DNA of 64,000 nucleotides from Balanoglossus misakiensis (GCA_040954595.2 CM082576.2:17407028-17471027), one strand, 5' to 3'; counted from the stretch's first letter, positions 3,601 through 55,900 are shown. Notes: generated from the sequence alone by a model not told the origin. Program-made: numbers and translations.

Positions 3601-6600
3601 AATTTATATTATTTTTTTTTAAAGTTCTTAACTTTTGCATTAAAAAGTCTGCTTTGTAGAAAAGTTAATAATATACAAAATTAATTCATTTTTAGTTTAC
3701 ATTTTTTTTCTGCTACATGAGTGACCCAACATTACTTTTTGATTATGAACCTTCCATTTGTCCAACATGGCAGAAACAACCATCCTGACATTGTGTCCAC
3801 TTTAGGAGATTTTTATTACTCATCTACATCCAGGTAGCAAAGCTCTGTTTATGGAAGTGAGATTTATGGAGATAACTGGGTGACATCATATCACTAACAT
3901 TAATATAGAACCATACATTATTGACAGAAACATTAGTTGACTAGTCAAACACCTCACTCACCTCCCATATGGTACAAGCCTTTGACTTTGGTAAATAATG
4001 CATCAGCACTGAAGTTGACAATTGGAACCTTCTTTCCCGGTCCAGACCATATTAAGTGTGAACCATTGCTGAAGCATAGACAAAAATGCATTAAATATTA
4101 CAGAATCTGCTAAATATTTCACATAGTGCATTCAGATGTCAATCACAGGCCAACATCTGTACCAAGTTTCAATACATATAAATTTGGTGCATTACTGTGA
4201 CATTGGTCAATATGGTGATTGTGCTCTTTTTTGACAATATTTGTCAGAAATGGATATCTTTCATATACCATTTCATGAACACCAGTATGCACATTAGGCC
4301 ACATGAAATCTACATGTAATCCTTTCTTGTCATTCTGAAACTTTTAGTGTACAAAATTTTACTTAAATCTGTTCATTTGACCTTAAAGCCCCCATGAGCT
4401 GCAACTTTTGGGAAATTATCATGTATATATATCATGGACGGTACCGGCTGTTTGGAGGGGAGCTCAATCTAGTATTGGTAAAATACTGTTTTACCACTGC
4501 TGGCAGTGGTAAAACGGGCCCCTGAACGAGCATGCAGCGGGGAAAATGTGCGGTTAAACCACAGTCGCGTGGGGTTAAACCAAAGAAATAACATAAAAAT
4601 ACTGTTGAATTTAAATTTTATTTTGGAAATGCTCCAGGGTTCTCCACGGGGGGTTTTTGAGGGGCGGCCTGCCCCTCTGTTTTTTGCGGCCGCCCCTCTG
4701 TCGTATGTGCCGCCCCTGCATTTGACAACACCGCCCCTTTGTTTTACCCGGTAGAAAACAAAGCTCGCGCGTGGCTAGTTATACTTTGCGAAACAACGAA
4801 ACAGCGAAACGACGAAACCATTATTAAAATAGGGGCCAGTCATCAAAACGGTGGCGTATGATTTTTTTTAAAGTTTCCAAATTAAAACGTAAGCGAGCCA
4901 AGAAAACTACAGGTCAGATAAATTGTTTTCTCGGAAATTCAACATTAGAATTTGGCGTTGGAAACAAACGGCGGGTCGCCAGTTCCTGGTCTGCGGCCTG
5001 GTACTATGTAGTGGTAGAGTCGACGTCGTGTGCGCGCAAACGATTCATGCCAAACTGCTACATATACACAGTGAATATACGCGCGCGCACAACGAAACCA
5101 CAACAGATCGAAACCTCAAAATGCGGCAGCAACTGACACTATTTCCTTAAATACCACAAGGCGGGGAGGCATGAATTGCAATTAAGATAATAAAGAAATT
5201 TCGACAATGATACTGTGTTGTGTGAGTTACATGTGTTTCTATATATAACTACTACTCTTACCCCCCATCAGTGTTTGACCCTCGAAAGCTTACGGACACT
5301 ACTGCTTTGTTTCAATTAATCCTTAGCCCTGTGAATATACTCGTACATTGACCTTTTGGGGCGGGATTCTTTTTTGGCGCGCAACCACTAGTACCAGGCC
5401 GCAGACCAGGAACTTATTTGGAAACTTTTAAAATAATAATACGCCACCGTCTTGATGACTGGCCCCTATTTTAATAATGGTTTCGTCGTTTCGCTGTTTC
5501 GTTTCGCTGTTTCGTTGTTTCGCAAAGTATAACTAGCCTCGCGCGTTGTGGTTTATAGTGTTACTAGCGTCTTTTGGGGGTGGACGTGAACAAAATGGTC
5601 GTTCACACTTTGTCATGCACCATAGTGACACTTAGCATGGCAAATGGAAACCGTTTCACACATTCAGAAATGATGTCAGTCGAACGTTCCAGAGAAAAAC
5701 CATCGTGTTATCGACATGACCTAATTACGTGACCTTTGACAGTATGCGTCCTTCCTTCACTTTGTAAACCCGGAAGACAGCAAATTTTTCACTGGACATT
5801 TTCATGACAGCGACTTCAACAATGATTACGATTTTTGGGGGTTTCATTGACTACAATTTTATACCGATCAAGGCCATTAGTAATCCCGACCGTGACAACG
5901 ACTCTGGAGCCGATGTCGAGAGTACGGGTGGTCGCGCGCGCGATCGGGGACCCAGCCAACTTAACTGCATTGAGCTGTGCACGCGATGTCGCGCACGGTC
6001 GCGGTCAGTCGATGTTAATTTTATGCAAATGATATGCTAATTTTTATGTAAATTATCCGCCCCTGTTAATTTTCAAAGCGTGGAGAACCCTGTGCTCTGT
6101 GGGAGTATATATATATTTATAATATACCTCATGCTAATACTGTGTCGTGATTCGCCAGAATCCGTCACGTGATAGGAAAATAGAATCGACTATGAACCGC
6201 TAGGGAAATAGCAGAAAAAATATAAACCGGTCACGTGACCAGCGTGAGTGCGCAAACTCGGTCACGTCCATCAGCGTCGCTTCGTCTGACACAATGGCCA
6301 CCGCGGAAGATGTCGTCTGCCAACCTCAAGAGAAAATTGCCAGATTTTCCCAGCTGTTAGCATGAGGTTTATTATAAAACACCTATAGCCTGGCCTATAT
6401 TCGGGCCATAGCAGCCGTTTTTAACCCCTCGTGATTATGAGTTACCAGAATCATATGCTATTTGCCTCGGCCTGCGGCCTCGGGAAATAGCATATGATTC
6501 TGGTAACTCACAGCCCCTCGGGTGTAATAAACGGCCGCTATGGCCCTCATGGCCAGGCAATAGGTGTTCAATATATATATTTTGTCATAAATACATGTTT

Positions 6601-7828
6601 TCTTGATATAATATAAGGCAATATCATTTAAAAGACAGAATTAAAAGCATCTGAGATTAGCCTAACCGAATTACATTGTATTGAGTTGCAGCTCATGGGG
6701 TTTAAAGGCTGTACAATCGGTAAAAGTATATTTTTTTAATTGTGCATTATTGGTTTCTCCTTTGTAACTTGCACTTGCTTTTGAAATCTAAGGTCGTGAA
6801 CTTAGTCAATAATTGAAGGAAACTGCTGAGTCAGTATTTTTCCAAAAATGGTTTGTCTATGTCTGTGAGCTTATAGTACATTTGTCTCTTAAAATAAAGC
6901 GTGGTGACCATATATGTACGATTTTAACTGACCAATTAATTTATTTTTACTTGACTGGGCTATGTGTAAAATTTCTTGAAAATGACAATATTGGGAAGAG
7001 ACAAATGTGCAGTTTGTAAGTTTACGTTCTGCATGAAATAATTAAGCAATACAACACCCCCGGCCATGGTATACCACGAGATTTTGACCAGTTCACGACA
7101 TATACACACGAGCGATAGCGAGTGCGTATATGGAGTTGAACTGGTCAAAATCGAGTGGTATACCATGGCTGGGGGTGTTTTATTGCTATTATATTATGCC
7201 AGTATATTGAAACTTTGCATAAAACATTTTAAAAAGGCATTTTCTTTGACTATGATATATGACTGTGGTATATGGCTAATATATCACGGTCACGTGTCGT
7301 GTCTCGACCAATCAAATTGCGTGATTTACACCATCAATATACTGGTATAATATAATATAATACATGATACATGTTTATTTCAGTGTTCTCCCCATGAATT
7401 TCTGATAGCGTAGCCGCCAATTTGCCTAAAAATATCAACAATTGTTATGTTATCTAAGTTCTATTGTCTTCTCAAAATTAAAGAGTAGTGGGCACTACGC
7501 TTTAATTGCTCGGGGGGGGGGGGGGGGGGGAACACTGTCATGTAAACATAAAGACACATGGATGCCTGTACATGTGAGCTGAAAATATTATGGACAGAAT
7601 TTAAAGGTTAGGACAATACATGTTATCTGCTCCTTCCGATTCCTCTTCTTCCCCCTCTTCTTCTTCATCATTGCTGTCTTTATCCCTATCAGAATCACTT
7701 GTGGTATCTGAGCTGTCATCCTGATCATCACTTTTAGATTTGTCAGTGTTGTTATCACTAGCAACAGATGCAGAGTCCGGGTCTGAATCTGATGTATTAG
7801 TGTCAGGTGTGGTCCCTGTTGATGTCAT
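512..7828 (-). CDS. TTLL5: Tubulin polyglutamylase TTLL5, 5' part (join 7828-7620, 4068-3962, 2381-2299, 618-512; continues left of window)
   Basis: Spliced translation ...[99 protein letters not shown] matches the recalled N-terminal TTL-domain region of TTLL5. All junctions are GT-AG with compatible phases. Confidence 0.9.
775..1937. mobile_element. Non-autonomous TTAA-target DNA transposon (Kolobok-like)
   Basis: TTAA|AGTGGAACG ... CGTTCCACT|TTAA; CpG-rich interior. Confidence 0.7.
2299..2381 (-). CDS. TTLL5: TTLL5 coding exon 3
   Basis: cag|AT AAA...GAA|gtaagt; (D)[27 protein letters not shown]. Confidence 0.93.
3480..3598 (+). rRNA. 5S rRNA gene, single copy, antisense within a TTLL5 intron
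   Basis: GCCTACGGCCATACCAC...CCGATCACCGAAGTTAAGC...GTTAGTACTTGGATGGGTGACCGCCTGGGAATACCACGTGCCGTAGGTT. The ends pair (GCCTACGGC/GCCGTAGGT), the internal control region looks intact, and a T-run follows at 3612-3620. Confidence 0.95.
3962..4068 (-). CDS. TTLL5: TTLL5 coding exon 2
   Basis: cag|C AAT GGT...GGA G|gtgagt; [35 protein letters not shown]. Confidence 0.88.
4635..6092. mobile_element. hAT-like MITE with 5-bp TSD
   Basis: TGCTC|CAGGGTTCTCCACG ... CGTGGAGAACCCTG|TGCTC. Confidence 0.8.
4773..5538. mobile_element. MITE with ~100-bp TIRs and 8-bp TSD (Merlin-like)
   Basis: TCGCGCGT|GGCTAGTTATACTTTGCGAAAC ... GTTTCGCAAAGTATAACTAGCC|TCGCGCGT; TIRs contain CGAAAC repeats; superfamily tentative. 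Confidence 0.8.
6117..6572 (-). mobile_element. Crypton-like hairpin element, family C
   Basis: Hairpin 6378-6570; IR pair TATACCTCATGCTAA (~6123) / TTAGCATGAGGTTTA (~6357) abutting the hairpin; no evident TSD. Confidence 0.7.
7042..7355 (+). mobile_element. Crypton-like hairpin element, family A copy 1 (314 bp)
   Basis: Near-identical to 21528-21841, 23359-23672 and 23738-24051. Confidence 0.85.
7620..7828 (-). CDS. TTLL5: TTLL5 first coding exon (acidic Ser/Asp/Glu-rich N-terminus); exon probably begins at acceptor 7959
   Basis: accATG at 7828 with an in-frame upstream stop; ends AAC AT|gtattg, phase 2, matching the next exon; strong acceptor ttttctcatttcag before 7959. Confidence 0.72.
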
Positions 7829-7870
7829 GGTGGTGGTGGTGGTGGTGGTGGTGGTGGTGGTGGTGGTGGT
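7829..7870. repeat. (GGT)14 microsatellite in the TTLL5 5' UTR
   Basis: Read directly; abuts the minus-strand ATG. Confidence 0.95.
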
Positions 7871-8449
7871 TAAAGTTGAGACAAGTTACTGCTGGTGTGT
7901 ATTCTTGTATTGTGTGGCATCCCAAAACAAACTTGAAAGGCCCACTTCTTAGGCATGGACTGAAATGAGAAAACAATATAACAAACAATACACGAAATTG
8001 GTAAATGGCATATTACATGTGACATATATCCACAAGTTCCGCAACGACCTTTGGCTGGTTGGATGGCCAGCCACCCAGCGAGCCCACCATGGTTACATGT
8101 ACAATTATTGCAGCCAATAATGTAGAGGGCACATTCTTGACGGGAGGGAGGGGGGGGGGGGGGGTTAGCGTGAAAATAGTCTGATATGGGTCCTGAGGCT
8201 TGTATTGCCGACCACACAGCCATGTCAAATCTGCGGGTGACACCGCGCAACTAGTGCTGACATAGTCTGAAACTCCACCTCTCAAATCCTGCATCGTTAG
8301 GCCAGTGCCATTACAACATTTACAAGTGCATACAGTTTGTATTATCATTAGATTGGCGAGACCATCATTCTGGCAGTTTTTGCATTCGCGAAGACAGCAT
8401 CGTCAGACGTGAGAGAAGCTACACGGCTCTGATACCAGAAAGATTAATT

Positions 8450-10452: not shown

Positions 10453-10467
10453 ATTACTGACAGATGC

Positions 10468-11286: not shown

Positions 11287-11581
11287 CAGATGCTATGACT
11301 GAGCATTTACATAACATTGCAAATCTCCCCAGTCCCGAGTGGGAGAATTGTGAATTTGTCCCAGATCCTACGTCCCGATCGGTGATGACAGTCATACAAT
11401 AACCAAGGGCAATTTTCAGTATGTCGACCCGCCAATGCAATTGGCAGGTTTTCTCCCGATCAAAAGAAAGTCTCCGGGTGTGAACAGTCTGCCTCGATGA
11501 CATGTACAGTACATTACACGTCTGCAGGTTTGACATGTTTGGATCACTCGGAAACACAAAAAACACTTTACGATGACTTAC

Positions 11582-11850
11582 CAGACAATCGTGTGTACTA
11601 TTCTAGCTATTTTCTCCTGAATGTGGTACCATACAGGCACTTGAAGGTGCAAAATGTAGACGATGCCGTAGAGAACTTCACAAAGAGCCGTAAAATGTTT
11701 GATAAAATTGAAGCTCCCGGTCCGTTTTTCCGGTAACCAATTTGTTGTTACGGACGCTCTTGGGCATGCGCATAGTGGATTTTCTCAAATCACGCAGATC
11801 AAAAGGAAAGTCTCGTGGGTCTTCGAGACTAGTTTAGTTCACTTCCGGTC
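11582..11850 (-). promoter_or_regulatory. Probable TTLL5 non-coding first exon and CpG-rich promoter
   Basis: Minus-strand donor G|GTAAGT at 11582/11581; NRF1-like GCATGCGCA near 11764-11772; ETS-like ACTTCCGG 11841-11848; local CpG enrichment. Inference only, no transcript data. Confidence 0.45.
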
Positions 11851-20500: not shown

Positions 20501-23500
20501 AATACCACAGAAAAAAGAACTGACTCACTGCATGCATACTTGTATGGCAGTGGAGAAATGGCGTGAAATGAAGTTGTATGATCCTTAACTACGTATATAA
20601 TTCAGTGCGACTAACTGGCTCTAAGTTGGGTTGTGCTGAGGGAGGATGTGGGGCCTGTACTGTCATGGTTTCTAAGTTTGATCATGTTTTGAAAGAATTA
20701 AGGTAAGTAATTTCATATAACAATGATTGAGGATGACCCCTTTCCTTTAATCCGAGGCTGCAGATGGGATTTTAGTCAATTTGTGATTTTGCATGTGTAT
20801 GTGTAATTTTATCTTTACTGCTTTTTATCGTATGCAATTTTATTACTAAAATAAAAACTTTTTACCCTGTATTTTTAATTTCATTTATGAGCCGGGAGAT
20901 GATTATTAATTACACTTAGTGGTGACAATAACGTATTTGAATTAAATTGAGATATCCAATTGTCACTCTTTTACAGCCATTTCTCAGTGAATGCTTGCCT
21001 GGCACCAGTTTGTGCCATGTATGGTTTAGCAGTAACTACTGTTGAAGGAATTGGTAGCACTAAGACTAGACTACATCCTGTACAGGTAACAAGAGACTGG
21101 TCCAAATAATATCACAGTTCCTTCTGGAAGTAACCATGTGTTTTATGTCTATGTAATTTCATTCTTTCCAAGACTTACTGTCTTCTGTGTGCTTTATTGA
21201 TTGTCTGTACAATATATTAAGATCCAGAAAAGAGCTTGATGGCCAGACCTGTCAGGCAGAACTACTTATTCAGTTCACCGTTTACCGAACCTGTTATGCT
21301 GTTCATAATCATCTGCGTTGTCATGAAAATGTTTGAGTTAAGTGTGTACGTGCAGAACATAAACTGGAAAAGTGCGCACATTCGTCTTTTTCCGTATGAT
21401 TACATTGAGAAAGGCTAGAAAACTCTCTTCTACTATTGTCATTTTCATGAAATTTTACATATAGCAATAGTCAAATAAAAATAAATTGTTATCAGTCAAA
21501 TAAAATCGTATGGGCACTGCGCTCTATTTAAGCAATAAAACACCCCCAGCCATGGTATACCACGAGATTTTGACCAGTTCACGACATATACGCACGAGCG
21601 ATAGCGAGTGCGTATATGGAGTTGAACTGGTCAAAATCGAGTGGTATACCATGGCTGGGGGTGTTTTATTGCTATTATATTATGCCAGTATATTGAAACT
21701 TTGCATAAAACATTTTAAAAAGGCATTTTCGTTGACTATGATATATGACTGTGGTATATGGCTAATATATCACGGTCACGTGTCGTGTCTCGACCAATCA
21801 AATAGCGTGATTTACACCATCAATATACTGGTATAATATAATTTGAGATAAACTTCACTAAACATTTTGCTCATGAAGACCAACCATTCGTGAAAAATGC
21901 TTACTCAGCAGTTTTATTGAATGATTGACTAAATTCGTGGCCTTGTGTTTCAAAACCTCTTATATTTTATTTCGGATTTTCATAATACATGTACATACAA
22001 ATGAGAAAAAAAATCCACAATTCAAAGAAATTACAGTAGTTTAAATTTTACTGATCGTACATCCTATTAACCCTGTCAATAATGCATGTGATGTTGATGT
22101 ATCACGTGGGACATTCAGTTCATATCTGGTTTCTCTGTGATTCTCTGAATATCTTCTTAATTGTTTAATCACACAGACTTTCTTGTCATTGGGGATGAAT
22201 TTTATGGTCTATTTTTTTTCTTTATTAAGGAACGGATCGCAAAGGCTCATGGGTCGCAGTGTGGTTTTTGCACACCTGGTATTGTGATGTCCATGTATAC
22301 ATTGCTAAGAAATGACCCCAAACCATCGTATGAAAATCTGACGAGTGCTTTTGAAGGCAATCTCTGTCGCTGTACTGGATATCGACCCATACTGGAAGGA
22401 TACAGAACATTCACAAAGGTGATTATCTTAATACTGAGCATATCTGTATATGTGTGTGTGTTTGTGCCCATGTGCTTGAACATTGCCGAAATTTCATAAC
22501 AGTTACCTAATTGATGGTTTAGACAAAATCAAAAATGGTATGTTATAATAATAGCCGGTATATGCACTTCTGGTAATATACGTTTTGGATACACTGGCAT
22601 AAAATTCATAGAAAGAGATTTCATTGATATGTTGGTCTTTATTGTAAAATACATGTATTACTGTCACCAGGAAATTTGTTATTTTACCAGTAAGTCTGTT
22701 GTCAAGAACCTCACAATCTACCTTGATATGTCAATTGTACATTATGTTGGTTACTGTGGATAATATTATATCAGTGTAACATGGCCACGAATACATTGTT
22801 GTGATTGGTTAATTGAGAGCCTGTTTTAATTTATGCAAGCCATGGTTAAATTAAGCAATAACCCCCGCCGCAGACGGGTATACGCGAGATTTGGGTACAA
22901 TTCGAGACATGTAGCACGAGACGTCAGGCCAGTGCTATATGGAGCGAATTGTACCCAAATCGAGTGTATACCCGACTGAGGCGGGGGTTATTGCTATTAT
23001 ATTATATCAACAATTGTTTTTGTGGCATATCAGTGTCATGTTCTTACCGAAACGGCGTCAGAAAGAGAAATTACGATCGTGAACCAACATGGCGACGATG
23101 AATGTAAACACGAGCAGGTGGGATCGAGCATTAAACATGAAGCAGACGACAAAAAGTGACAAGACGGGCATCGCGCGTGGCAAAGTGACAAATATTTCCA
23201 CAGAGCAGTTCCAAAATAAAACGTCCGTTAATTCAACAGTATTTTTGTTTTATTTATTTGGTTTGAACACGCGCGACTGTGGTTTAACCGCACATTTTGG
23301 CTGCCGTATGCTAGTTCAGGGGCCCGTTTTAGCACTGCCAGCAGTGCATTATTGAGTATTATATTATACCAGTATATTGATGGTTTAAATCACGCTATTT
23401 GATTGGTCGAGACACGACACGTGACCGTGATATATTAGCCATATACCACAGTCATATATCATAGTTAAAGAAAATGCCTTTTTAAAATGTTTTATGCAAA

Positions 23501-26500
23501 GTTTCAATATACTGGCATAATATAATAGCAATAAAACACCCCCAGCCATGGTATACCACTCGATTTTGACCAGTTCAACTCCATATACGCACTCGCTATC
23601 GCTCGTGCGTATATGTCGTGAACTGGTCAAAATCTCGTGATATACCATGGCTGGGGGTGTTTTATTGCTTAATTTTAGCATCGCTGGATTGAGCTCTCGT
23701 CCAATCAGAATTGCGGACGGTAGCATGATATAATATATTATATTATACCAGTATATTGATGGTGTAAATCACGCTATTTGATTGGTCGAGACACGACACG
23801 TGACCGTGATATATTAGCCATATACCACAGTCATATATCATAGTCAAAGAAAATGCCTTTTTAAAATGTTTTATGCAAAGTTTCAATATACTGGCATAAT
23901 ATAATAGCAATAAAACACCCCCAGCCATGGTATACCACTCGATTTTGACCAGTTCAACTCCATATACGCACTCGCTATCGCTCGTGCGTATATGTCGTGA
24001 ACTGGTCAAAATCTCGTGGTATACCATGGCTGGGGGTGTTTTATTGCTTAAATAGAGCATAATGCACTGTTATATTTGCCCCTGAATATGAATTAATGTA
24101 CAAGTTGAATGAGTAATCAAAAACAGGGAAGGCAATATTTAGATATTATGAAAAACATTTCTGGTACTTCAAAATAACATTTGTTTGACAATGTGACGTG
24201 GAAGTTAATTTTGCGATTGTCTTCATATTTGGAGTATGCGAGTATTTCTGGAGAGAGTTAAAATGCCAATTCTGGGGCCTATTTCATTTAACCACTGTTA
24301 CAACAAGAAAACACTGTTCTTTGAACATGGCCATTCAAATTAATTGTAATGTCTAGAAAGTAATGAAATGAAATTGATATAATATATTAGCAATAACCCC
24401 CCGTGGAGGGTGGGTCTACCACATTTCCACATTTCCCTTCATATATGCACTCGCCTGCAGCTCGTGCATATATGTCTCGAATTGTGCTATATCTAGTGGT
24501 ATACCTGCCCCCGCGCCGAGGGATATTATTACTTAAATACTTTATTTTCACTGGAATTTATTTTGCTGTAAATATAAATTTTGAATAATACTTCTATTTT
24601 ATTTTCACTATTTCATGTTAACTTTATAATGTGAAAAGAATAGGAAATAGGAATTTTCACTGGGATTTCATTTTAGTCCCAATTAATGTTTATTGAAGTG
24701 TTTGCATATACACAGAGGTCGGGTGATGATACTGCGTGCGTGTATTTTTGACGCACTAATTGAAAAAATAGCACCAAACTGAGAAAATTACGTGTCAAAA
24801 TTGATTGATCACTTCATGTATTCAAACTGCAAGCTGCAAACCAATAGGCAGTCTTTTTGGTGACATGCTTTTGTGTGTGGAACAGTATTGTGTGGGGCGA
24901 CTATTTTTTTCATATACACTATCGAAACAAATGAAAATTGACTGCCTCATGTAAAAGTAACATTATATGAATTGACACACCGGAGAGGTGAGCAAATCCA
25001 GTGGTCTCAGGTCTGACTCTGAGACCATCCATTTTGTTGCCACGTTTTTACTCTGTCTGGTTTAAAGGGTTTTAAAAAAATCGTAACCTCTATACATGCT
25101 AGTGTGTACACAATATTGCCAGGCATGCTTTTATTCTAGGGTCATGTTTGGTGTCAGGTGACTTTCACTGTTCCTGACAGCATCATCCATGCAATATGGT
25201 CTGTAGGGGGTACCTCAGGTATTATTCAAATGACTCGTAATTGGATGCCCACTGTAAACTCATTATATTGAATAGAGCTCGAGGTCACAGTACACTGTAT
25301 AGTGGTTGTCGAGGGGTTTCACAAAAATTACGAGTAGGCAGCTAAATTTGGGAAGTAGGTGGCTGGTGGCAAGCTGAAGAAACCATCAGGGTGGGGTTTG
25401 GGGGATGGAGGGGGTGGTTGTCTCACTAGGTGGCGAAAGGCTGAAGCTATTTAGGTTTTGCAGAACACAAACGCATTCTCTGCATTAAAAATCCTAAATT
25501 GAAGTGGTATAATTCCTGCCCACACTTCCCCATCTGCAGCCAGGCTCATAGACTGTCGACAGTCCCTCGCGCCTAATGTGTATCGATTCGGCGTTTCGTG
25601 CGAGGGCCGAAGGCCCGATTCGGCGTTTCGTGGTGCGAGGGCCGTAAGGCCCAAGGGACTGTTATAGCTTGCAAGCCTTGCCTTGATATTAATTATGCAT
25701 GCAGAAAATGACGTACTAAAATTTGCATATAGGGGCGTAAATTAAGGTCACCGTGTTCATGAGTTTATGACGTATATTAACTGTCAATCATTTTACAGGG
25801 GCATTTTCCCACAGTGCCCGTGTGAGGGCGAAACAAGGTATAACAGTCCCTCGGGCCACGCCCATGCCCGAGGCCTTACGGCCATCGCACCACGAAACGC
25901 CGAATCAGGCCTTCGGCCCTCAAAAGATACGGGCCTTACGGGCCTCGCACGAAACGCCGAATCGATACACATTAGGCTCGAGGGACTGTCGACAGTCTAC
26001 CAGGCTCACTGCTCAATTGTTTTAGTGATCTCAGAATGAATGACTGTATTGGATGACTTTTTTTGTCATCTGTGTTACTGGTCTTATATTATTTGGAAAG
26101 TAAAATAAGTTTCAATCTGTGTGGCATTAATATAGAAGCTGTTTACCTTTAATAAAAAGACTATCTGCCATGAAGATACCACAGACGTTTGATCTTGATG
26201 TTGAAATAATAATTTACAATCATGTTTCTCTGTTTTAGACAGAAAGAAATCAACAGTCTCTTCATATCTGATGACTTTCATTTCGAAAGTAAGAAAACAA
26301 TTAGGTCAGGGTCTGGGGAAACAAATACAGTGTTGATAATTCCCCCCACCCCTGGTCAGGCTGCCCCCCAAAAGAACTCCAAACAAAACAAACAACAAAA
26401 TCTGGCAAGGGGGACAATCACCCTTGCTACTGTCATTCTCGATGGAACACTTTGTCTGTATTGTTATTATTATTATTTCATCTTTATTTCAGATTATAAA

Positions 26501-32500: not shown

Positions 32501-35500
32501 TGGCATGAGGTAGAAATGTTGGACCAATTTTTATGGCAATGTGAGAGACACAGCAGCTGAAAGAGTCCTCGAAAGAGAATGAATATTAACGTGGAGAACA
32601 TTTATTGTATTGCAGAGATTAATTTAAGTGGAAACTTCATAAGTTCTCTGGATTGATTTTTCATGTTATACTCATTGAGTTTATTTTCACTCCACCATTT
32701 CATTGAATCCGAACAAATTTAAAAAATCAGAACATTTTTTTTACTGCATTTCAGAATATAAAACACAAATGTTTTCTGCGATAGTGGAAATGCTGCGGTG
32801 GTTTGCTGGTCATCAAATTCGAAATGTTTCTGTAAGTATGTCACATTAAATTTTAATTTTCATACATGCAACACCTGTATTCGCCACAATGAAGATATGA
32901 GCCTGTATTTTCACTAGTGAAAATACAGAAACAGATTTTCAATGTGTATCAGGAATTATTTTTGAGGACATCCAAAATCACCACACTAACAATGTTGAAC
33001 TGAACTGATTCAACAGTAATATGGAAATCAGATGCAATTTTGTTGGGTTATATTATGTTTTAAATTTGTCTGATATATTAAATTAATATTTATGATCTTT
33101 ACCATAGGCTGTTGGTGGTAATATAATGACAGCAAGCCCTATCTCTGATCTCAACCCACTTTTTGTAGCTGCTGCTTGTAAGCTCACACTGGCATCCAAA
33201 TGTAAGTTCATGTGATCTTGAATTCTCTTACCATGGCTCCCACTTCACTTTTCATTATGCATTGCAAGTAGGGGGACTTGCGCTCCGTTCATTTAGCCTT
33301 GCATTATTACACCAATTTCATTCAAATGTGCAGTCACCATATACAGTGTTCATCATAATGGCTTTACCCAGCCAATCTCACCCTGCTTTCTTTTCTGCCA
33401 CTCTCCTTTTTAGTATGACAATATCACAAATGTTTCTTTTTACTGGGCAGGGTTCAAAATTGTAGGGAATATTGTACATTATATTACCATGACCTGTGCG
33501 TCGCATTTTAATTGGTTGAGATGAACGTCGTCACTGACCACAAATACTCAGTAATGGTTTGTTTACATGCCCGTAAATCTGAATAGTAATATTAGAAAAC
33601 AGTTCAGTGAATACAACATTTTGCGTAACACAAGTTCCGGGGCCCCCTAGTCTTTTACGTGGGACATTTTCGTAAATTTTGACGGTTTTCTTGAGTTCGT
33701 TGGCAATAAAATGGAAATAACTGACTCCGCCCTGACCATTAACGTTTGTTTATTGGGATCGGGCTCGAAGAAAGCCAAAATTCATGGGCTCGGAAGCCTC
33801 GCCCGTGAATTTTTTGGCTTTCCCCTCGCCCTTGCCCATAAACAAACGTTAATGGTCAGGGCGTTGTCCATTATTTCTATAATATTCCATACAGAAACTA
33901 ATGACCAAACATAGTATTTGCCTGGTGGTATGACATCCACATGTACATTTTTTATTATTGTTCAATTCAATCTTTATCTACTCAACACATACCCTTTGGT
34001 TAATGCGGATTATTGTAGAAGTGTGCACATTCCTAGCCTATCGGATAGTATTGTTTCTGGCATTGAGTTCTTACGCAAATATACAAGCGTAGGTCTTTGA
34101 TAGACTCTCTCACGTCCCCGTTGGCCGTCCATGCAAGCTTATGGTCTGATTGCATGTGTGCCCGACAAGGTTCGCTACACAACACCATATGGGGCTTCTC
34201 CTTTGCTAAATGGTTGAGGGCGCGTCAGTGAAGAGCCTTGTAGCGAACAGTGGGCTGTGAGAAAGTCTAAGGTCTTTGATAAAACATCATGACATATGGG
34301 CCGCCGCAAGGGAAAAGGGCCCTTATGCATGGATTTTTCGATTTTTATTTTTTGTCATTTTTTGATAGTACCTGTGCTCCTCTTTTCATATGTGTGCCGC
34401 TCACTATGAACTTACACCTGGAAATGGCATTTGTGGCCCATTGAATGTGACATATGACCTTTGACCTCAGCCCACAAATAAAATTCACTGTTTTTGTCGC
34501 CTATTCAAATGCAAATTACTAAAAATGACGTACACTTGCATAAGGGCCCTTTTCCCTTGCGGCGGCCCATATAGTTTTTGTGCACTTTGTACAGTCAAAG
34601 TATGCAACTGCACCGATAGTTTTTAGTGTGTTAACAGAAATTTTACCAGGTTCACACACACAAACGATTTGAGACACTATAGTGCCTTTCACACATGCAC
34701 ACTTTCTACAATATTAATTTGTAAGTGCCACGTGTGAAAAGGTGAGAGCGGCCCTGCGCCGCTCTTTTCTGGGACGGTGTTGAGGGGTGGGACCTGGGTC
34801 GGGGCGCCGCACTAAACAGCGATTCAAATCACGTGTGAACAGAAACACCGTACTAAACGCCGATCTAAACGCACTCTGCCGATGCGGTTTGTCTCATTAA
34901 GCGCCGCATTAAGCGTTGAGGTTCACTTTACTAAAACAATGGCCGAAGCAGTGTCTCGAGGCAACAATTGGAGTGACGCGGAAATGGCCAAGGCACATAC
35001 ACAGGAATTGCAAACTCGACCTCCGACGACGATTTTGTAGCATGGACTGCAGTCTTCCAATCGCAACCTCCAATGAAAGGTTACCATAAACGGGTATCGG
35101 GTCATTCAAATGCCCATGAAATCGGCGTCGACGACATTTAAAAAGCAAATTCAAGAGTACCATATACAGTAAACACATTACTGGATCCGCCATTGTGACG
35201 CTGCTGTGGACGCGCGTAGAGGGCGATGACCCCGTCCCTTTTATACACATGTGAATGCAAAACTGTTTGAGTTGCTGATACGAAATGTTTACCAACTTTT
35301 ATAATCCCAAAAAGGGCGCCCTAACCATGGCACGTGTGCAAGCGGCTTATGGTAAACACAGAGCATTAATCCTTTGAGTCGCGTTGTGTCCACACACACA
35401 CAAAGTTTGTGTATAGGCACTAAGGCTCAGTCCCCTAATAGACAATAGGTTGCGGAGAGGTGTAAATCCTTACACCAGCTCAGGTCTGGCCGGAAAAGCC

Positions 35501-41500: not shown

Positions 41501-44500
41501 GCTGTATATTGTGATGATGTAACCCCAATAGAAGGTAAACCTTTCTCTTAAAAAATTGCTCTATCAAACACTTTTATGTGTACTACCAATAAATTTATAG
41601 TATCGGCTTTGTTGGAAGTGTTTTATAATAACCACCATCACCACCACCACCACCATCATCATCATCTTCTTCATCTTCTTCATCTTCTCAGGGCACTTTT
41701 TGCCCTGCTTTATTAAAGTTGAAAACTGCCACATATTCACTTCTCAAATTTGTATGTATGTATTGTATGTAAATGTGTGTGTGTATGAATGTTATTAACC
41801 ATAGAGAACATGGCACAATGATCACTAGAGTTGTGGCGCAATGGTGGTTGGGAATGTTGGCATAAGCCTTGGACTAAGCATGGCAGGAAATTCTCGTAAA
41901 GTTTTCGTCATATTCCTAATACTTCAATGACACAAGGCAATGATAGGACTAAGGCTCAGAAGCATATTTTTATCAATCAGTGTAGCCACAGCTGTTCGCA
42001 TTTGTGTGTTGTCTACAAACAGTACCTAATGTCACACCATTAGAGTTACCTAAGGCTTACTCTGTGACTTTCAGTCAAAATAATGTATACACACTGAGCA
42101 GACTGCAAGGAAAGATTGAGCCAGAAATGTGCACAGAGAGTAAGTAGTGTTCACGGTGCCCACTCTTACGTATACGTTCAGTTCTAAGTAGGCTGACAGG
42201 CATTTCCTTTCAAAGGTGGGGGTGTATTATCAACCAAATGATGTAAAATGGGGTTTAACAGAGGAAAGTGTATACAGTAATAGGGTTATGGACAAAATAG
42301 GGGTCTTTATGGTCTCGAGGTCTGAGCCCCTCGTCCGTACATGGTGTGATAAATCATCACTGATTTTATTCTTTTTCTACTTGCGTAGGTTGGTACCTTT
42401 CATTCTGTGTTAATGAGCATCTGGGACTGGGTTATCGAGGAACGAAAACCCGCAGCATGTTTGTTTACAAAAAGTCAAAGTGGTGTGTACCTGAGTCAGA
42501 GGCTTATTGTTTTCTGAGAAGTGTGTGTGCAGTCATACAGCACTTGTTTTTAGGAGAACAGTACGATTTTGTTTAAAACTCATATTGTAGCAAATTTTTG
42601 ATTGTGTCTACTTTTTTTCTATTGGCAAGCGTGCCCTGGAATCAGAGCCATTTTAACTTTGAAATTGAATTTGAACGAGCTGCTTGGAGTCATTTTGCCT
42701 ACATGCGCAGAGCTTGTGGATAACACAATAGGAATTTTGCTTTAGTTGGCCTAGAATATTGCACATATCGGAAGCTTTGATCGCTATTGAAACAGCAGAT
42801 ATGGTTGAACGAAGAGGAGTTTTTAGTGTTAGATAATAAGTGTTCTAAATCAAAAATATTCACCTCTGCATTATATGTTTAAGTCAGCTATTATCTGAAA
42901 CAATGTTATAGTCCGTCTAAATGGTATTTGGTAACTGATGAAAGGTTTACCATAATGGATTTTGTGTTATTATTGCAATGTACTGCAGATTATTCTGAGG
43001 TTCACTACTACATAACTTTGGTATAGCTCTCATTACTGTGAGAGTGAAGAAAAATAGTCCCTTTCAAATTTAATATTTTGGAGCATTTTTGACAAGCAAG
43101 ATTTGGTTATTTTTTTGCATCACTTGTGAAAATAACTTCTGTGTGGCACAGATCGCGCGCGGAGGGCAGAAGTTCTGTCATGTTTTGGGAATTTTATTGT
43201 TCTCTGAAATGTGTTGACAAGACAGACGTGATGTCTCGCTGATCTGTTTTCAGTGATGAAACCAATATTTTAAATGTCTGTACCTGGGTCTCTGCATAAG
43301 CTTACAATCACAAACTATTGTGTGACTCAATCGTGTGACTTCGGAGTTTCATTTTGTTTTGTGATCATAATTTGGGATCATACAAAATCATACAAAAATG
43401 TATCCAACACAAACGTCAGTTTGCAAAAATATCGAACGCACCAGACTTTATGTCGCCTGTTGGCAGTGTGTGCTCTTTTGGCCAACAATAGGCACTTCAT
43501 ATTATATTAACATTACATATGATAGTAGGGACCCTGTTCTGAGATGTGCGTTCTGGACAATAGAGTGACTTTTGAAAAGTGCAAGGCACACATAGAATGT
43601 TTCATTCCCAGATACCAATTTTGCAAAATTTACATAGTAATCTAAGCTGCTTCATTGGATTTTTAAAGCAAAACGTAATTTCAGCTCCAAAATGGTTCCC
43701 ATTGAAATGTGTGTCATAAAAATCGATATTGTTTTTGCTCTCTTTGAGCCAATATACCCCGTGGAAATCAGACCTATTGTTAAAATTATTATTTTTATAT
43801 GATTCTTATTTAATTATTATAATTTAAACAGTATGGTTTGAAATATTTTGTATATCAGTGAATGGTATTATTATTTTCTATTATTATTTTACTGTGAAAC
43901 AGGAAATTATGCCGCATTCTTTTGTTGGCATGTGGCAGTTTAAATTTTATGCCAATATTTACAGTGTTTATTGGGGAGCAAAACGCCAAACAGATACATC
44001 TTTCTTTGTTTGACGTCATCGTATACGAGTGGTTTTTCGCGGAGCAGTGCAACTTCGAGCCGCAGGCGAGAATTGTACGCTTCCGAGAAAACCACGAGTA
44101 TACGATGACGACAAAGAAAGATATCATGGGATTATATATTTATCACATGAACAGTCTTCTTATTTTTCGTTAGAAGAGGCAGGCCTAAAAAAATTCAGTA
44201 TTTTGCAACAATTTTGGAGCGGTGTCGTATTTTGCTGAGCGGGATTATTTTCCCCTACGAGATATATGTTGGGAGATTTTATGAATGATCAGCGATAGTT
44301 CATCATTTGCATATATAAATTCAGCCAGGCCGTTCGCATGACACCTACCACAACCTCCCACTTTGTCTATCATTCAACTGTTGAGTTTACAGGTATGGGT
44401 GGTTATACTCACTCACTTACTGATGTTTAATGCCCAGTTTTAATTATGCGCATCCGACTCAGCAGGTAATCCCACACAAACAAATGCGCAAATAATTTCC

Positions 44501-47500
44501 TGTTTCACAGTATTATTATTATTATTATTATTATTATAATTATTTTTATTTATACAGTAGAGTTTAAATTTTTCTGTTTATAGGTGAATTGTATTTGGCG
44601 CTAGTGACAAGTTCCAAGGCACACGCCATTATCAGGTAATGATTACTGTGCTCTGTAAAGATAGACAATCTCCTGGTGGTGGTGCTGGTGTAACTAAGGC
44701 CAATGAAAACAAATGTGTGGCTCCGATAACCAGACCACTACTTTTTTTAACTGGCCCTCGCCTGTTTCACAGGTACAACAATGCCGAAGTTAAAAAAATG
44801 CAAAATCCATGATAAAAACTAAGAAAAAGCAAAATCATGTAAGACTATGGATTGACATGGCGTTATCTATTAAGCAGATGCTCTGATATAAATAAAAAAA
44901 AATGAATTTTTTTTTCTTCTACCTTACTACCCTGTTTCTGAAAAGTTATCTGAACCACACAATCAATTATTGCGTTGGCATTATGCATGTGTTGTAGGTT
45001 TTCTTGTAACATATTATAAGGTTATTCACAAAATACCGGGATTTATGTCCAAGTACATCGTACAGCGGAGGTATTGTCCGAGACGCGCAGCGTCGAGGAC
45101 AATACCGAAGCGTACGATGTACGAGAACATAAATCCTGGTATTTTGTGAATAACCTTATTATTATACACCTTTTCTGAACGTTCTTCATGAACGATAAAG
45201 AATAAATAGGCCGCTATCGGACTTTTTAGTTTTCAGACACCGCCATGATGTAATTTGCATATCGAACGCACCTTCATCTCGCGCATCAGGTGATGCTAGT
45301 GTCGAACTGCCTGTCTCGCGCGCGACGTTCTACGCTGCGTGCGCTGAGCTCGTTCTGGAACTTGAAATGAACGCGCTCGCCTGTTCGTTCACAGATTCCT
45401 TCGACTGAAATTTCAGCGTGGATTTTGACTTATTTCGCATCACCAATAATTTTGTTTAATAACGGCTGTGTACTTTTTATATAAATTTTTGTCAGAATAG
45501 GGTTAATATCGTCATTGTTTACATTGATCACCAGTCCTGTGAGGTCAAAGTCACAATGCGTCCAATAACCCTGGTGTATTGGACTCCACGTCCTCATTTG
45601 AATAATTATTGTACGGTGATACCGGGAATTATTGTATTACGGAACTCCATAGGTTACAGCAGTAGGTGTATAATAATATCAATAAAGTCTTTCTTTATAA
45701 TTATTCACTGGTATCCCTCTGTGCAATCCTATATTAATTTTGTTTTGTTAGGTATGATCTGCTCAGTTGGATGCAGTACACTTGTGGCAGTTCATTAAAC
45801 CCCGGTGCGGGGTATAAAAGACCCCCCAAATCAGTGGCGAATCTTAATGCCGTTTGACTGACAACAGACAACACCAACGATCTTGGCTCTATGAAAATCG
45901 GCCCAAACAGGTCCAAGCATAAAGAATTACACCACACAACGACAGTAGTTGGCTTTATAAACACACACAACATAAAGTTATCGACGAAAAAGTACACGAG
46001 CTTTTGAAACAACGATGATTTTGGGAGAAATCTGGTTTCAGTGCTATTCAGAAGCGTCCCTGAGAAACAATAACCACGCCATTCAAACAGTTGTCAATCG
46101 CGTGGAAGTGTAAATTTAGTGTTCAATTATTTTCTGTGTGCATGAGATCAATTACACAGTCATTATGCACGACGACCACTCCCAAATAAACAACTATACA
46201 AACACACGTTAATCCGAACCCCGGTACTTTCCGCACCGGGGTTTAACCCTGTATACAAATTGGGTGATAAATTTACATGTCTTTCAGTGCAGCCATACTT
46301 TAAGTCAATATTTGTACTAGAGTTTTAGCTAGCATACCACAGTATTTTTTGAAAAATCGAAATGAGCGATGAAAAGTGAAATTGGGAATTCGAATTGGTG
46401 GAGCATGTTTGTGGGTTTGGTTCAAAGGTGCATCCTTGGGGTAACTTCACCAGCGGGTCATATGATTATGAAAAGTGGCACCAGCGGGTCATATGATTAT
46501 GAAAAGTGGTGTCATTGCATTGGTGCGTCTTAGTTTAGACCTCTGCTTGAGGTGCTAATATTAAAATTTCATCGTTTTTTTTCTTTGTCTTCTGCTGTCA
46601 TAAAAAGGTGTGAAATTGTCTGCGGCTCGTGTGGGACAGAAAATCCCCAACTCGTGTGAGAATTATGATTCCAGGTCCGTTGGGAATGTGAGATTCTCTC
46701 CAATCCTTCCCATTCTACCGTCGGCCAAATGTGATTGTTCAGTGGATATATCCAAATGGATAGTTGGCACAGTTCTCTGGGCATATTTGGAAGGATATCA
46801 GACAGCCAATTGCGTCCATCCAGGGTCTCTGCCCATGAAGTCAGGGCTTTAACCGCTCATGGCCTTTATCAGCCAGGGTCCCTGCCAGTGTGCCCTCTAA
46901 GCCCATATGACGCATCACTGACTCAACAAACTCACTGGCGACTCAATAAATTTATCCATCTTACATGCAAAGGTACATGGCTGACTCAGGGAAATAATGT
47001 TTGTTGGAAAACACTCTGGCCCCTGTTGAAACCATCTTGCAAGCAGGAACATGACATTCTGTGCAAACTCCTCTATTAGTTTTTACCACTGTGATATTGC
47101 TTCCGAGCTGGACGGGCTCCACTCAATATGCCTGATCAGCAAAAGCCACACTGCTATTTCCTCTCAGCAATACTATGGTGGAATTGACATTCTTTTCCCA
47201 CCTCCATGTTTGTGTGGAATTCTGTTATTTATCCAAATAGGAATAACGGCCGCATCGATTAACTATATAAGTTGCTTAGGAGCATAAAAATTTACATATC
47301 ATTAATATGTAGAACGTGATCTGGCCAATGAGGTGGCCAGAAAGGGGCGTCACTCACCCGTTTCCCTGCAATGAAAATTGCGACCTTTTCTTTTCAAATG
47401 TAAATTTTTATGGTCAAATGCTCTGTTTGGGGATATCCTGTAAATTCAAAACAAGAAAGGACAAGTCAATCTTGCCTCTGGAAGAGAAAAATTTTCACCA

Positions 47501-49960: not shown

Positions 49961-49991
<31 letters not shown>

Positions 49992-52900
49992 TACATGCAT
50001 AATGAAATGGTGATCGGGTTTGGACCTTTGCTGCCATATTGGATTTTTCTTTAAATCTCATTGAAATTGTTAAAAATCTTCCTTCACCAGAGCCTGCAAT
50101 TACAGAAATTTGATTTCATGCCCATGAAGTGAATTCTAGAGTAACCAATAGGGCTAGACATCTGTTTTTTTTCTTGGACATGGACGAGTATTGGATGAAA
50201 TTTGGGTAACCTACGTTTGCATCTACTTGGCTTTTGGTGGGATCTGCTTGGGTTCTGCTAACACTGCTTGCTGCTTTAATTCTAAGATATGTTTCATTCG
50301 ACAGGTTGTCCATGTTGGCCAAGTGATTGGTGCAATTGTAGCTGAGGACCAAACCATTGCTCAAAGAGCTGCCAAACTTGTCTCTGTGCAGTATGATGAA
50401 TTGGAACCAATAATTACAATTGAGGTGAGCTCATACCCAATTCAGGTAGGCGACTATCCAAATGCAATGCATGGTTTATTCATATTCTATAGACTCACAT
50501 GTAGAAATATTCACAAAAGGTGCCAAAAGAGGAGTACATGTATTACACTATGTCACCATGCATGAATTTTTGATAGAGCTATTCAGATAAAATCCCTGTA
50601 AGAAAACTATACCTTGGGGAATGCAAGAAAAGGTCTGACTCTGCATTTTCAGAAATATTTCGGACGCCCGAACTGCACAATTAGGATGGGGAACACCTTA
50701 GTTTGTTTCTCTCTCTAGTTTTGGATTTAAAAATCATACAATGTGATGAGGCATATCTATTGCACCAATGTGAGGCACGTGAATTGAGGTGCATTACTTT
50801 GTATATTTGCAGGAAGCTATAGCCAAAGAATCCTTTTACAGGCCAATCAAATCAATAAAGAAGGGGAACACAGAAGAGGCATTTGAACAATCCGACCAAA
50901 TCATTGAGGGAGAAATAAGAATGGGTGGTCAAGAGCACTTCTATTTAGAGACCAATGCCACCATTGCTATCCCCAAAGGAGAAGATTCAGAGATGGAAAT
51001 TATGGCTTCCACTCAAAACCCTACAATGACGCAGGTATGAAAGATGAATTTTAGCCAAAGTGCTGCATGAACTCTGCCTGCATTGGCAAGTTGTGATAAC
51101 AGGTCCCTTGAAAACCTGTCTCAAATTTTCTGTATGTGCTTTGGTTTGTTTTGTTATGTTATGTTATGCACTCTTGAAGCCAGACAGAATTATCAAGATT
51201 TGTTAATGCGCATATTTCAACCAGGAATTATGCAGCATTTTTGGGGTAAAGATGGATTTTTTAGCTTACATTAGGTGCGTTTTGAAAACCTCAATAATAA
51301 TGTAGAAAGCAGGAATTTTTGGGGTGCACCCATGTGGCCAGTCAGTGTGAAATCTGAAGGTAGCAATGGGATGGGATCGCTAAAAGACCAAGTGGTGTGT
51401 TTGGAGATTGTAATAATCTGTGGGGTGTATTTTGGGTGTACATTGGTGCCTGAGTATTTGGTAAGGGTTAACTTTGGTACATATCTCTGATACACTTGGA
51501 CGATGTAACAAGATGCAGTAATTGAAACAGATGGTCACTATCTTAGATATTTTTTTCCCTTTTGAACAGACAATGGTTGCACAAGCACTGGGTGTTCCAG
51601 CCAATAGAATTGTATGCAAGGTGAAAAGGATGGGTGGAGGTTTTGGTGGCAAAGAAACACGAAGCTGTCCACTTTCCACTGTTGTGGCTGTAGCTGCGAA
51701 CAAGTAAGCAAATAAGCAAATACAGCTTGCTGGAAATTTTCAGATGTTCATTTTTCAGATGCAATTAAGTTTCTTGTGAACATGCTACAAATTTGCTGCA
51801 AGCTCCGTTCTGTAAATTTGCAGCAAATTAATTTGGGATACAACCTTCTGGTACTGCAATTTTGCTACAGCTAGTACTCATTGTGGTCACCACCTCAGAG
51901 ACCACAAATAAATAATGATGGATGTGTTTGATGTACAGTGTTATCAGTCTCACTCAGCAGAGCTCCATGTTGCTGATAGTGGAGTTAATGTAGGAAAAAT
52001 CAATTACAACTATTACAATAATCAAAACTTTTAATTATTTCTTATATAGCGCATTAAATGATAAATTATCTCAATTGCATTGTTGTTACTATTATGAGAT
52101 ATACTGGTGCCACTTTTACATTGTAACATATTAAGGCATGGCTATACCTTTCCTTACATGGTTAGTTGGCAGTTCAACGCTTAATAATGATAATAATGAT
52201 AGTACTGAATAATGCAAATTCTGGATGGCTAGATAAGTTGAATATTTATTCAAGGAGCACGGAGCGAGACATAGACTTGCCAAAGCTTCGCCTTAAACAT
52301 GAACATTGTAAACGTGATAATAAAAACTTACACAATTTAAATTAAAATTTCTCGTGGTTCTTGGTAGAGTTGGCAGACCTGTGCGTATTATGCTGGATCG
52401 AGATGAAGATATGTGCATTTCGGGGACTAGACACCCGATGATGGCACGGTACAAAGTTGGCTACACCAGAACTGGGCATATTAAAGCATTAGAAGTTGAC
52501 TGTTACAGCAATGCTGGTTGCAGCTTGGATCTGTCTCTTTCAGTAAGTGTAATTAGATTATCAATATTCCTCCATCAGTTAAATTCAAATGTTTTATTTG
52601 TCTGTGAATTGAAAACTCATCACATATCAAAGATACGTTATACGTCAATCAACCATGATGCATACATTATATACACATTATATACTGGTACATTACATTA
52701 TGTCAGTGCAGCAGTGCTACAAATACAGATTCATGATTGGATGTGATCCTGTTTTTAATTATGGGAAGCCATGGTAAATAGATCATAGAGTACTATTTTC
52801 CCATTATCAAATTGGTATTATTTTATATCATGCTACCGTCTGCCATTCTGATTGGAAGAGAGTGATTGTGCGGTTAAGCCATAGTCGCGTGGGGATAAAC

Positions 52901-55900
52901 AAAATAAATAAAATAAAAATACTGTTGAATTTACGGACATTTATTTTGGAATTTCTCTGTTGGAATATTTGGCATTTTGCCTTGCGTGTCAGATGCCTGT
53001 CTTGTCACTTTTTGTTGTCTGCTTCATGTTTAATGCTCGATCCTGGTACATTACATTATGTCAGTGCAGCATGATTGGATGTAATTGCGGGAAGCCATGA
53101 TGGTAAATAGATCGTAGAGTACTATTTCCCCATTATCAAATTGGTATTACATTTTGCTAGTCCAAGGCGTTTTTCGTTTATGTACGTATCCATGAATGTA
53201 TCAAATCTAAATTAGTTCATTGCCAAAAACAGCTTGCATTCAAAAATGTACATTTGATGTATACGTGTTTGCTACATTACATTATTGCTTACTGTAGACT
53301 TCATGCACTTACCTGCTCAGTAATTTTGACAATCATTCCTTTGTATTATAGACATTCTTTGAGAAGTGCAGACATCATGTAGAGTTGTATGTAATCACAC
53401 AATGTATAAAGTTCGGGTCCCCATGCTTTGGTAAGATTTATATTTTTCATCAACAGGTAATGGAACGTACCTTGTTTCACATCGACAACTCATACAGATT
53501 ACCAAATGTGATCGTAACAGGGTATGTGTGTAAGACCAACACTCCATCTAATACTGCATTCCGTGGTTTCGGAGGACCTCAAGCAGTATTCTTTGCTGAG
53601 CACTGGATGACAGACATTGCTACAAGATGTGGTATTACTCAACAACAGGTAAACATCTTTCACAATAAAAAAAACAAACTATTAAAGGGACAAAGTCTCT
53701 CTCTAGCTGCCCATTTTCCATTAATTATGTTTGATACAAGACACCGTTTATGTTATTCTACATGTGGATATATAGTGAATCAATGTTCAACCACACACAT
53801 CCATCCAACTTGTAGACACAAGAGTGAAAAACTCGCCAAAATGAATAATCGTAGAATAACATAAATGGTGTCTTGTATCAAATATAAATAATGGAAAAAG
53901 ACTGCGAAAGAGAGACTTTGTCCCTTTAAGACCTAGAGCAAAGTAGTGGACCTAAGCAAAAAGAATTTACAAAGACATATTCTAGACTTATCAAACTCAA
54001 CCTACCTACACTTGCAGAAGAGAGAGGGGAGATCAGTGTTCGCGGTCAAAATTTTGACAGTGCGTTTTGCGTACGCAAAGGCTGGGCAAAAATGCGTATG
54101 ATCATTATTTCAATGCGTAACTGGCCACTTCCGCATTCCAGTCCACAATAAACAAAGTCAACATGAGAAAACATGTATCAAAATTGATCACAATCACACG
54201 TAGACAGCGTGCTTAGTTTTGCAATTCAAGTACTAACACTGTAAGAGTGTGAAACCTTCGAGTCATCAAAAATGAACCTCTAGAATTTTGAAGGGTTTCT
54301 TTTTCCACGCGAAGCGAAAATTTCCCGTGCTCGGTCAAAACGAAAGTCGGCAACAGGTGGCCCTTCCATAGTAAGAAGCATCAGATCATCGGCATGCTCG
54401 TCGCCTAGTCGATTGCGTCGTGCAGTGAGTACGCGGTTTTGGCAACTGAATCCCCGTTCACAGGGCCTGTGAGCGAAGCCACGGATATTCGATATTCCAA
54501 CGGTTTTGAAACTCGGTGTGACCTTCTCCCGTGCCGGGTTGCTTTCGCTTTCGCTTTACTGCCTGCGTCGATGTCACCGTGGACACGTCCGACGAGGTGG
54601 CAATACAGGCGGCAGACTCCAAAGTAGGCTGCGCGGCTGGCATCTCAGCGGCCGTTTTGCTGCTTGAACTCGCAACAGATTCATCTAGTGATGCTCCCGA
54701 TGTTTTTTTGCTAGAAGCACTAAAGTTGAAAGATAGCAACGAGGATTGCTTTGACATGATTTTTGAGCTACAGTGGCACCAATTACTAACAGTTAGCTAC
54801 GTATTGGCTCTCTGTCCGTGTCAGTGAAACGTGGCGCGTGTCGCAGTTAGTCGGAACGAAACGATTTGCTCAAAAATTGATACAATTTCGGGCGACACCA
54901 CTTGAGTTACAATCGCGCGAAAAAAATGCTCAACATGTTACTATTTTAAGCGGCGCGGCGCGTGGTGCTCTGTTGCAATTTTGTTTGGGGGCAATGGGCG
55001 AAACGTGCGCGATAGGCAATTGCTGTAACGAAAGTAGTATTTCAAGTGCGTACAGTCAAACGCACTGTCATCAGAAAAATGCGTTTGAAAAAAATCTTAT
55101 GCGTATAATACGCACTTTTTAGCGTAACCGCGAACACTGGAGATATGATTGAGACTTGCCTTAATATATTGAATTGTATGCTAGAATGATGTCACTTCCT
55201 TATTCAGTGTAATTTCTCCTTTGCTCATCACCAAACGTGACATAGTTAAATAATAACACATGTTAGCGAGGGCAATATCATGATCTTTGGCCTGCACGAG
55301 GGATGGTGATTTTGATAATATTGATGATGGCTCGGGCATCATCAATATTATGGTCAGAGATCACCAGCCCGAGGGCAGGCCAAAGATAATGATATTGCCC
55401 GAGCATGACATGTGTTATTAATTTTATTATACCGAACAATTGACCATACACAGCACAGAGGGTTGCGTCCATTTCGTATGATGCAGGTTGCAGTGAACTA
55501 AAATATCTCGCTGTACAGTGTACCTACTTCGAACTCAGATTTGGTGTATTTACTGTCCGTTTGCGGTAAAATATCGTCTAGTTGAACAGCTGTTAATCCT
55601 GTGTGTCGCTTTGAAGCCATAGATGCGGGAGTTGACTGATCGTGAAGGAAGCCATTGAACGACAGTTTGTTATGCGCAGAAAAGATGCACAGAACCTAAA
55701 ACCCGTTCTCAGCCTGTAATATTCTCTCAGCGCGCGCGTATCCCTGGCCCGTAGCCCCTACCTACGGGCCATATACTCTGTCAACCATGTAATATCACAT
55801 TCTTTTCTATGTCACGTGGTATGGTCTCAGCCAATCAGTAGTACGGAATACAGAGTGAGGTGTAATAATATGATTTGCAGTGAGCAGAACATGTCCATCA

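Follow-up and report, generated by a model that had tools for sequence, protein, structure and literature searches.

We describe here a set of short elements in a window of 64,000 nucleotides of Balanoglossus misakiensis (GCA_040954595.2 CM082576.2:17407028-17471027; positions below count from the first letter of the window). The elements, in six families A to F, are a related set of non-autonomous elements, real and recently active, and are probably of Crypton type. Family A inserts as one unit of 314 nt after a target AWT, carrying its own AAT. The reading to which we lean, if only slightly, is that these are gene-less transposons that insert as whole units without target duplication, and are likely mobilised by a Crypton-type tyrosine recombinase (YR) acting on one folded strand. 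The structural design and the scar point to a single-stranded reaction resembling that of integrons. Each element is described on the strand on which it begins with a long hairpin (the hairpin-first strand), the hairpin side being the left end; the hairpin is followed directly by a short seam, then by the body, and at the right by the far end. The elements are:

6119..6572, minus strand: family C element; hairpin 6378-6568, seam about 6355-6377, far end about 6119-6140, with (AT)n flanks that blur the exact ends
7043..7356, plus strand: family A copy A1, 314 nt
21529..21842, plus strand: family A copy A2, 314 nt, shiftable by 1-2 nt, polymorphic with an empty allele present; hairpin 21531-21673, seam 21674-21696, far end 21820-21842
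22852..23736, plus strand: family B element, about 573 nt less its inserts; hairpin 22854-22995, seam from 22996; it contains A3, and A4 separates its last bases from the rest
23358..23671, minus strand: family A copy A3, nested in B, with an empty site from other B copies
23737..24050, minus strand: family A copy A4, in opposite orientation to B and 1 nt from the right junction of B
33479..33881, minus strand: family D element, 403 nt; hairpin 33705-33886, the hairpin-side end being set by the loose ends of 11 contigs at 33881
45015..45676, plus strand: family E element, 662 nt; hairpin 45013-45162, seam 45158-45172, ends set by analogy, without an empty site
55247..55868, plus strand: family F element, about 622 nt; hairpin 55248-55423, seam short and weak

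The insertion scars come from contigs. The window was recovered as contigs in three sequencing runs (X1, X2 and X3) of one sample, which may underlie the assembly and hence are not independent support for it, and in which other copies and alleles are visible; X3 is a small share and was used for loose ends only. In both X1 and X2 there is a contig that runs straight on from 21527 to 21842 and lacks the 314 nt in between, with matches of 58 nt on each side and an ambiguity of 2 nt. The depth of this contig equals that of the whole right flank, which indicates that it is the empty allele of the A2 locus and that A2 is polymorphic, and so that family A was recently active. When filled, the locus is flanked by ATT at the left and by AAT at the right, and when empty it has a single ATT, so there was no target duplication, the left triplet coming from the target and the right from the element. 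In the case of A3 the empty site is given by other B copies and is again 314 nt, with AAT at both sides. The triplet AWT precedes the left end in all four A copies, in B and in a decayed hairpin at 24374 (listed below), and D obeys the same rule, as 11 contigs part from it exactly after the equivalent T (33881). It had been proposed from the sequence alone that the element moves as a whole unit, and for family A this is borne out, without target duplication, by the A2 and A3 empty sites; the result on duplication covers family A. As A4 landed 1 nt from the right junction of B, targets are rebuilt by element ends. A1 and A2 were also considered as each other's empty sites, and this was rejected as the right flank of A1 does not continue the repeat.

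These empty sites bear on the possibility that a palindromic miniature inverted-repeat transposable element (MITE) lies beside an ordinary element with terminal inverted repeats (TIRs), both moved by DDE transposases. The seam-side motif and its inverted copy at the far end do resemble a TIR pair, and partial relics exist, but A2 and A3 were inserted as whole units and the A2 trinucleotides differ between the two sides, which excludes a duplication there, and we regard this composite as extremely improbable. A simple DDE-type MITE, with TIRs and a target duplication, is likewise contradicted for family A by the empty allele of A2.

Family A is abundant. The summed contig depth over the A body in X1 is 1.3-2.8 x 10^5, where single-copy flanks have about 32-46, and of 763 A contigs 494 are at least 99% alike; as contig depth is no copy number, we can say only that there are roughly thousands of young copies. 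Two contigs follow A as far as the seam (window 21683) and then continue into the B body, and are either A/B mosaics or merely have a common seam.

With regard to the layout, hairpins of 142-191 nt were confirmed at all nine places at which the sequence-only reading had put them, and the window has 16 long hairpins where each of 20 dinucleotide shuffles has none. Of the seam positions, 22 of 23 are complementary to the far end in A, 17 of 18 in C and all 14 in E. When this complementarity was scored against 200 shuffles of the downstream 1 kb (B being outside that test), the real score was reached by no shuffle for A, C or E, by 22 of the 200 for F and by all 200 for D. The B match is clear after removal of the nested A4, and with its inserts removed B ends like A. 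The claim of one layout in six families is thus clear for A (4 copies), B, C and E, whereas for D and F chance gives as good a far-end match, so that their layout rests on position and shared end motifs. Of the six seams, that of F alone does not have its best match in its own far end; in B (12 v 11) and D (7 v 5) the margin is narrow. The seam had also been described as the reverse complement of the joined ends. It is indeed complementary to both ends, but not exactly, being 2 nt short in A, B, D and E, the families in which this could be resolved. In A, B, D and E the gap comes immediately 3' of the crossover T in the junction, the ends of E being those set by analogy; in a folded model it would form an unpaired spacer beside the crossover.

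The families proved to be more related than the sequence-only reading had it, where only A and B shared terminal motifs. A pattern of CACGTG, CCAATCA and element end is present in A1-4, F and an F relic, with 6 matches in the window and none in 100 shuffles, and each family has a CCAAT-like word, at 115 nt from the right end in E and at 34-48 nt from it in the other five. At the right ends of A, B, C, D and F the CACGTG-, CCAAT- and TATA-like words are in promoter-like order, pointing outward; it is speculative, but in a circle they would face the hairpin. Material for covariation is sparse, as the single-nucleotide polymorphism tables from short contigs give 6 rows only. There are in addition partial or decayed relatives in the window:

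24374..24540, minus strand: decayed A/B-type hairpin with the start of a B-type seam and no body, absent from the sequence-only reading
44003..44121, plus strand: extra hairpin, its tip GCA and its GA/GA loops two in number, a possible seventh family, with no far end convincingly found within 1.9 kb
60968-61260 (minus) and 61296-61755 (plus): two F relics, back to back, with most of the hairpin gone
4420-4634, 52816-53043 and 48209-48266: relics of B (without hairpin) and E (half hairpin)

The hairpins are not alike on the two strands. Over seven hairpins, read on the hairpin-first strand, the arm mismatches include 46 G·A against 2 C·T, and the tandem loops are 12 GA/GA against 0 TC/TC, tandem pairs not being independent of each other. 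Such tandem pairs add stability to stems of DNA. An unbiased scan shows the GA strand to coincide with the hairpin-first strand in all 9 layout hairpins and in all 6 families, and GA/GA loops are absent from two MITE-like palindromic controls (window 38798-39135 and 53682-53929). The proposal that one strand is preferred for folding is therefore supported by this bias. A different family, with TIRs of about 80 nt (window 25536-26012 and 18966-19310), has within those repeats small hairpins with GAA/GTA loops on opposite strands, so such loops exist outside the seam layout too. The tips of the A and E hairpins are the mini-hairpins GCGNNAGC and GCGNAGC, and the C tip is a GCA loop. In the available text of PMC13037366 these two mini-hairpins are far more stable as DNA than as RNA, and are found at priming sites of single-stranded phages.

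We suggest the following course for the reaction. The hairpin-first strand, when single-stranded, would fold, and the seam would pair with both ends to give a duplex made up of the right-end arm, one paired T, a bulge of 2 nt and the left-end arm. The recombinase would cut the folded strand after AA and the target after AW, with a single strand exchange through the lone shared T, that is with 1 nt of homology, and the junction would then be resolved by replication in the host, as it is in integron attC x attI recombination. The same seam can also pair with the AT-rich flank on the left of the donor copy, as seen in A1 and A3, and this may provide a substrate for excision. The homologous spacer of 6-8 nt that had been expected was not found, as target and element have only the outer bases of the trinucleotide in common and 2 junction bases find no partner in the seam. 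As for the YR reaction itself, the geometry of the scar fits exchange with minimal homology, but the partner recombinase did not turn up in the searches made. The GA strand bias favours a cut on the folded strand, without proving it.

The published Crypton model is a double-stranded circle (PMC3212892; PMC13565253, as far as their available text goes), and the elements could be Crypton-type and move in that way, with hairpin and seam serving as accessory binding sites or as a priming signal, or arising as a by-product. The clean excisions and matching target motifs of CryptonF in Chlamydomonas, in the accessible part of bioRxiv 2022.05.23.493040, are in accord with such a circle. We nevertheless think it unlikely, since it leaves unexplained the GA/GA loops on one strand and a seam that matches its own far end, and since no core of 6-8 nt is common to target and element, the left side being target-derived at both solved sites.

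A Pfam scan covered 141 of the 156 open reading frames (ORFs) of the window, the 15 omitted being mostly microsatellite frames, and gave no HUH match in the window and no Pfam match at all in the ORFs over the elements, reverse transcriptase (RT)/RNase H and YR included. Three pattern scans were made of viral and metagenome sequence. The A/B end-and-seam pattern gave 9 viral and 5 metagenome matches, all rejected as being without a hairpin, and the right-end pattern gave 2 viral matches, rejected as having neither a hairpin nor likeness to the window. Family A had no match in phages.

Several observations weigh against folded-strand recombination. Relics made of hairpin alone or body alone occur, the seams of D and F are weak, and the relatedness of A and B means that the families are not fully independent. 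In the seven hairpins G·T at 16 against A·C at 9 is not a significant difference, and the tips of B, D and F are not exact mini-hairpins. With DNA parameters ViennaRNA favours the hairpin-first strand only weakly, in 7 of 8 with D reversed, and with RNA parameters more strongly, in 8 of 8. No direct right-to-left joint of the kind that a circle would have is among the contig joints listed, in contigs that lose rare forms. The 141 ORFs include no recombinase gene tied to the element ends, DUF3504, the domain type of the YR that an autonomous Crypton, lacking an RT, would encode, was found in 0 of 4, 0 of 401 and 0 of 401 prokaryote assemblies, in searches in which the positive controls were silent too, and the three pattern scans gave chance matches only. 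Finally, the scar is also compatible with an HUH enzyme, or with cleavage of the opposite strand given near-identity over 3 nt. Among the same listed joints are head-to-tail pairs with 11 and 23 nt between copies.

Single-strand transposition driven by an HUH enzyme, like that of IS200/IS605, Helitron2 or Replitron, would have the seam as a guide that pairs with the element end and the target. Such systems typically insert without duplication and in a set orientation 3' of a short motif, and show hairpins and strand specificity, but the elements have neither the 3' hairpin or subterminal inverted repeat of the Helitron2 type nor the terminal direct repeats or fuzzy ends of the Replitron-1 type, both ends being precise at two solved sites, and the ORFs scanned gave no HUH enzyme. 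We consider this quite unlikely.

The folding energies do not, in the models used, tell a DNA from an RNA intermediate, and we have also considered non-autonomous DIRS-like retroelements, with the seam in the role of the internal complementary region (ICR), restoring the ends on single-stranded cDNA before insertion by a recombinase. The logic and the trinucleotide scar are the same, and in DIRS-1 the ICR is essential, the cDNA single-stranded and the RT able to act in trans (PMC7192593, in the text available). RNA folding parameters favour the same strand, and the right-end words of CCAAT and TATA-like type could act as a promoter. However no terminal inverted repeat pair encloses the ICR, the seam is not an exact complement, the A, C and E tips are loops of the DNA type, and there is no 5' truncation series in the four A copies, and we find a DIRS-like origin of this kind very doubtful. 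A Crypton-type recombinase remains our preference, on the basis of a triplet scar without duplication, of the lack of DIRS and Helitron anatomy, and of the abundant non-autonomous CryptonA families on record in animals.

The window itself is animal DNA, with microsatellites, fragments of long interspersed nuclear elements (LINEs) and exons of a xanthine dehydrogenase-like gene:

22161, 31832, 38491, 50158, 50783, 52324, 53352 and 60586, plus strand: Pfam matches to xanthine dehydrogenase-like exons

Between these matches, in what would be introns of the gene, are B, D, E, F, A3 and A4, and C, A1 and A2 are upstream of the first one found. An Rfam search of the window gave as its sole match a full-length, isolated 5S rRNA at 3480-3598 (plus strand, 113.8 bits), a gene or pseudogene, and a tRNA search found none, so with no such match over them the elements were rejected as a known RNA gene or a tRNA-derived short interspersed nuclear element. 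There are two broken LINE retrotransposons, at 26489-28733 (minus strand, with an RVT_1 match) and 9408-10388 (plus strand), and very high-depth repeats of unassigned type at 31600-31870 and 34164-34280. The LINE RT used as bait found no match in viral contigs. A second LINE fragment, as a bait for which 63 of the 120 homologues listed were aligned, picked out 7 loci (L017-L023) in 4 GTDB representative assemblies with animal-type LINE contigs, likely host contamination. DUF3504 was not found in these four assemblies, and there was one weak DNA match of 44 nt, in one of them.

A broader proposal, which we put forward tentatively and would not yet back at even weight, is that widespread animal YR transposons move as folded single-stranded DNA, with an integron-like site built from the two ends on an internal splint and a single strand exchange at AW/T with 1 nt of homology, and that the DIRS ICR plausibly originated from them. 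If true, single-strand recombinase chemistry of the integron type operates in animal genomes, these elements are a eukaryotic counterpart of integron cassettes that links Cryptons to DIRS, and they offer a compact, duplication-free integration system. Family A, being recently active and 314 nt long, with exact ends, a target rule and a folding strand, lends itself to oligonucleotide substrates and to sharp predictions as to strand, cut site and bulge.

In comparison with Cryptons, family A has no TIR and no target duplication at its empty sites, and has a short direct repeat of which one copy belongs to the element and one to the target, AWT on the left and AAT on the right; this repeat is 3 nt and imperfect, in contrast to the 4-6 bp of fungal Cryptons. 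Like non-autonomous animal CryptonA elements the families are short (here 300-700 nt), abundant, gene-less and in an animal host. Crypton-like repeats of salmon may be alike in layout. In the available text of Kojima and Jurka (PMC3212892) terminal repeats are not found in animal Cryptons, being n.d. in 8 of 8 CryptonA rows, and that of a 2026 review (PMC13565253) has the mechanism of Crypton transposition as experimentally undemonstrated. Animal Crypton descriptions, in the parts available, do not mention a hairpin, seam or strand bias, whereas the present elements have all three. We found no description of a hairpin-seam layout or folded-strand mechanism for Cryptons in the literature, and Repbase or Dfam entries could already record the hairpin.

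The DIRS elements also have an internal stretch complementary to both termini, here with the 2-nt gap in A, B, D and E, and a trinucleotide scar, to which element and target each contribute one trinucleotide (PMC7192593, PMC6681497, in the text available). In the same text they have inverted long terminal repeats, an RT, a tyrosine recombinase and an exactly complementary ICR near the right end. In our elements no inverted terminal repeats enclose the internal region; the long inverted repeat is wholly at one end, and its stem runs from one terminus into the seam with 2 nt unpaired. RT/RNase H and YR ORFs were not found over the elements, and a partner could lie elsewhere.

With IS200/IS605, Helitron2 and Replitron there is a common single-strand logic, with hairpins and oriented insertion without duplication (PMC13565253, PMC3627910, PMC10288648), but the terminal anatomy is different, and a splint for both ends is not described for them in the available text. 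In particular, the asymmetric inverted repeats and 3' subterminal hairpin of Helitron2 are not present, the far-end repeat here being terminal, and hairpin scans gave no self-inverted match near the right ends, though very short hairpins would escape them. The strand-biased circularizing elements of Vibrio (PMC9345347) have tyrosine recombinases that copy out one strand, but are bacterial and multi-gene, with no fold-back splint described in the accessible text.

The integron resemblance extends to the cut. The integron integrase cuts AA/C, needs homology at one base and tolerates change in the middle base (PMC2811028), and in attC the cut adjoins an unpaired segment (PMC2727003), both as given in the available text. 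The scheme proposed here is like attC x attI recombination in having one folded strand, an unpaired spacer by the cut, 1 nt of homology and a tolerant middle base in the triplet. It differs in that attC is one contiguous bacterial site, whereas the site predicted here is an animal one and would be assembled on an internal splint from two ends that lie far apart, for a putative enzyme.

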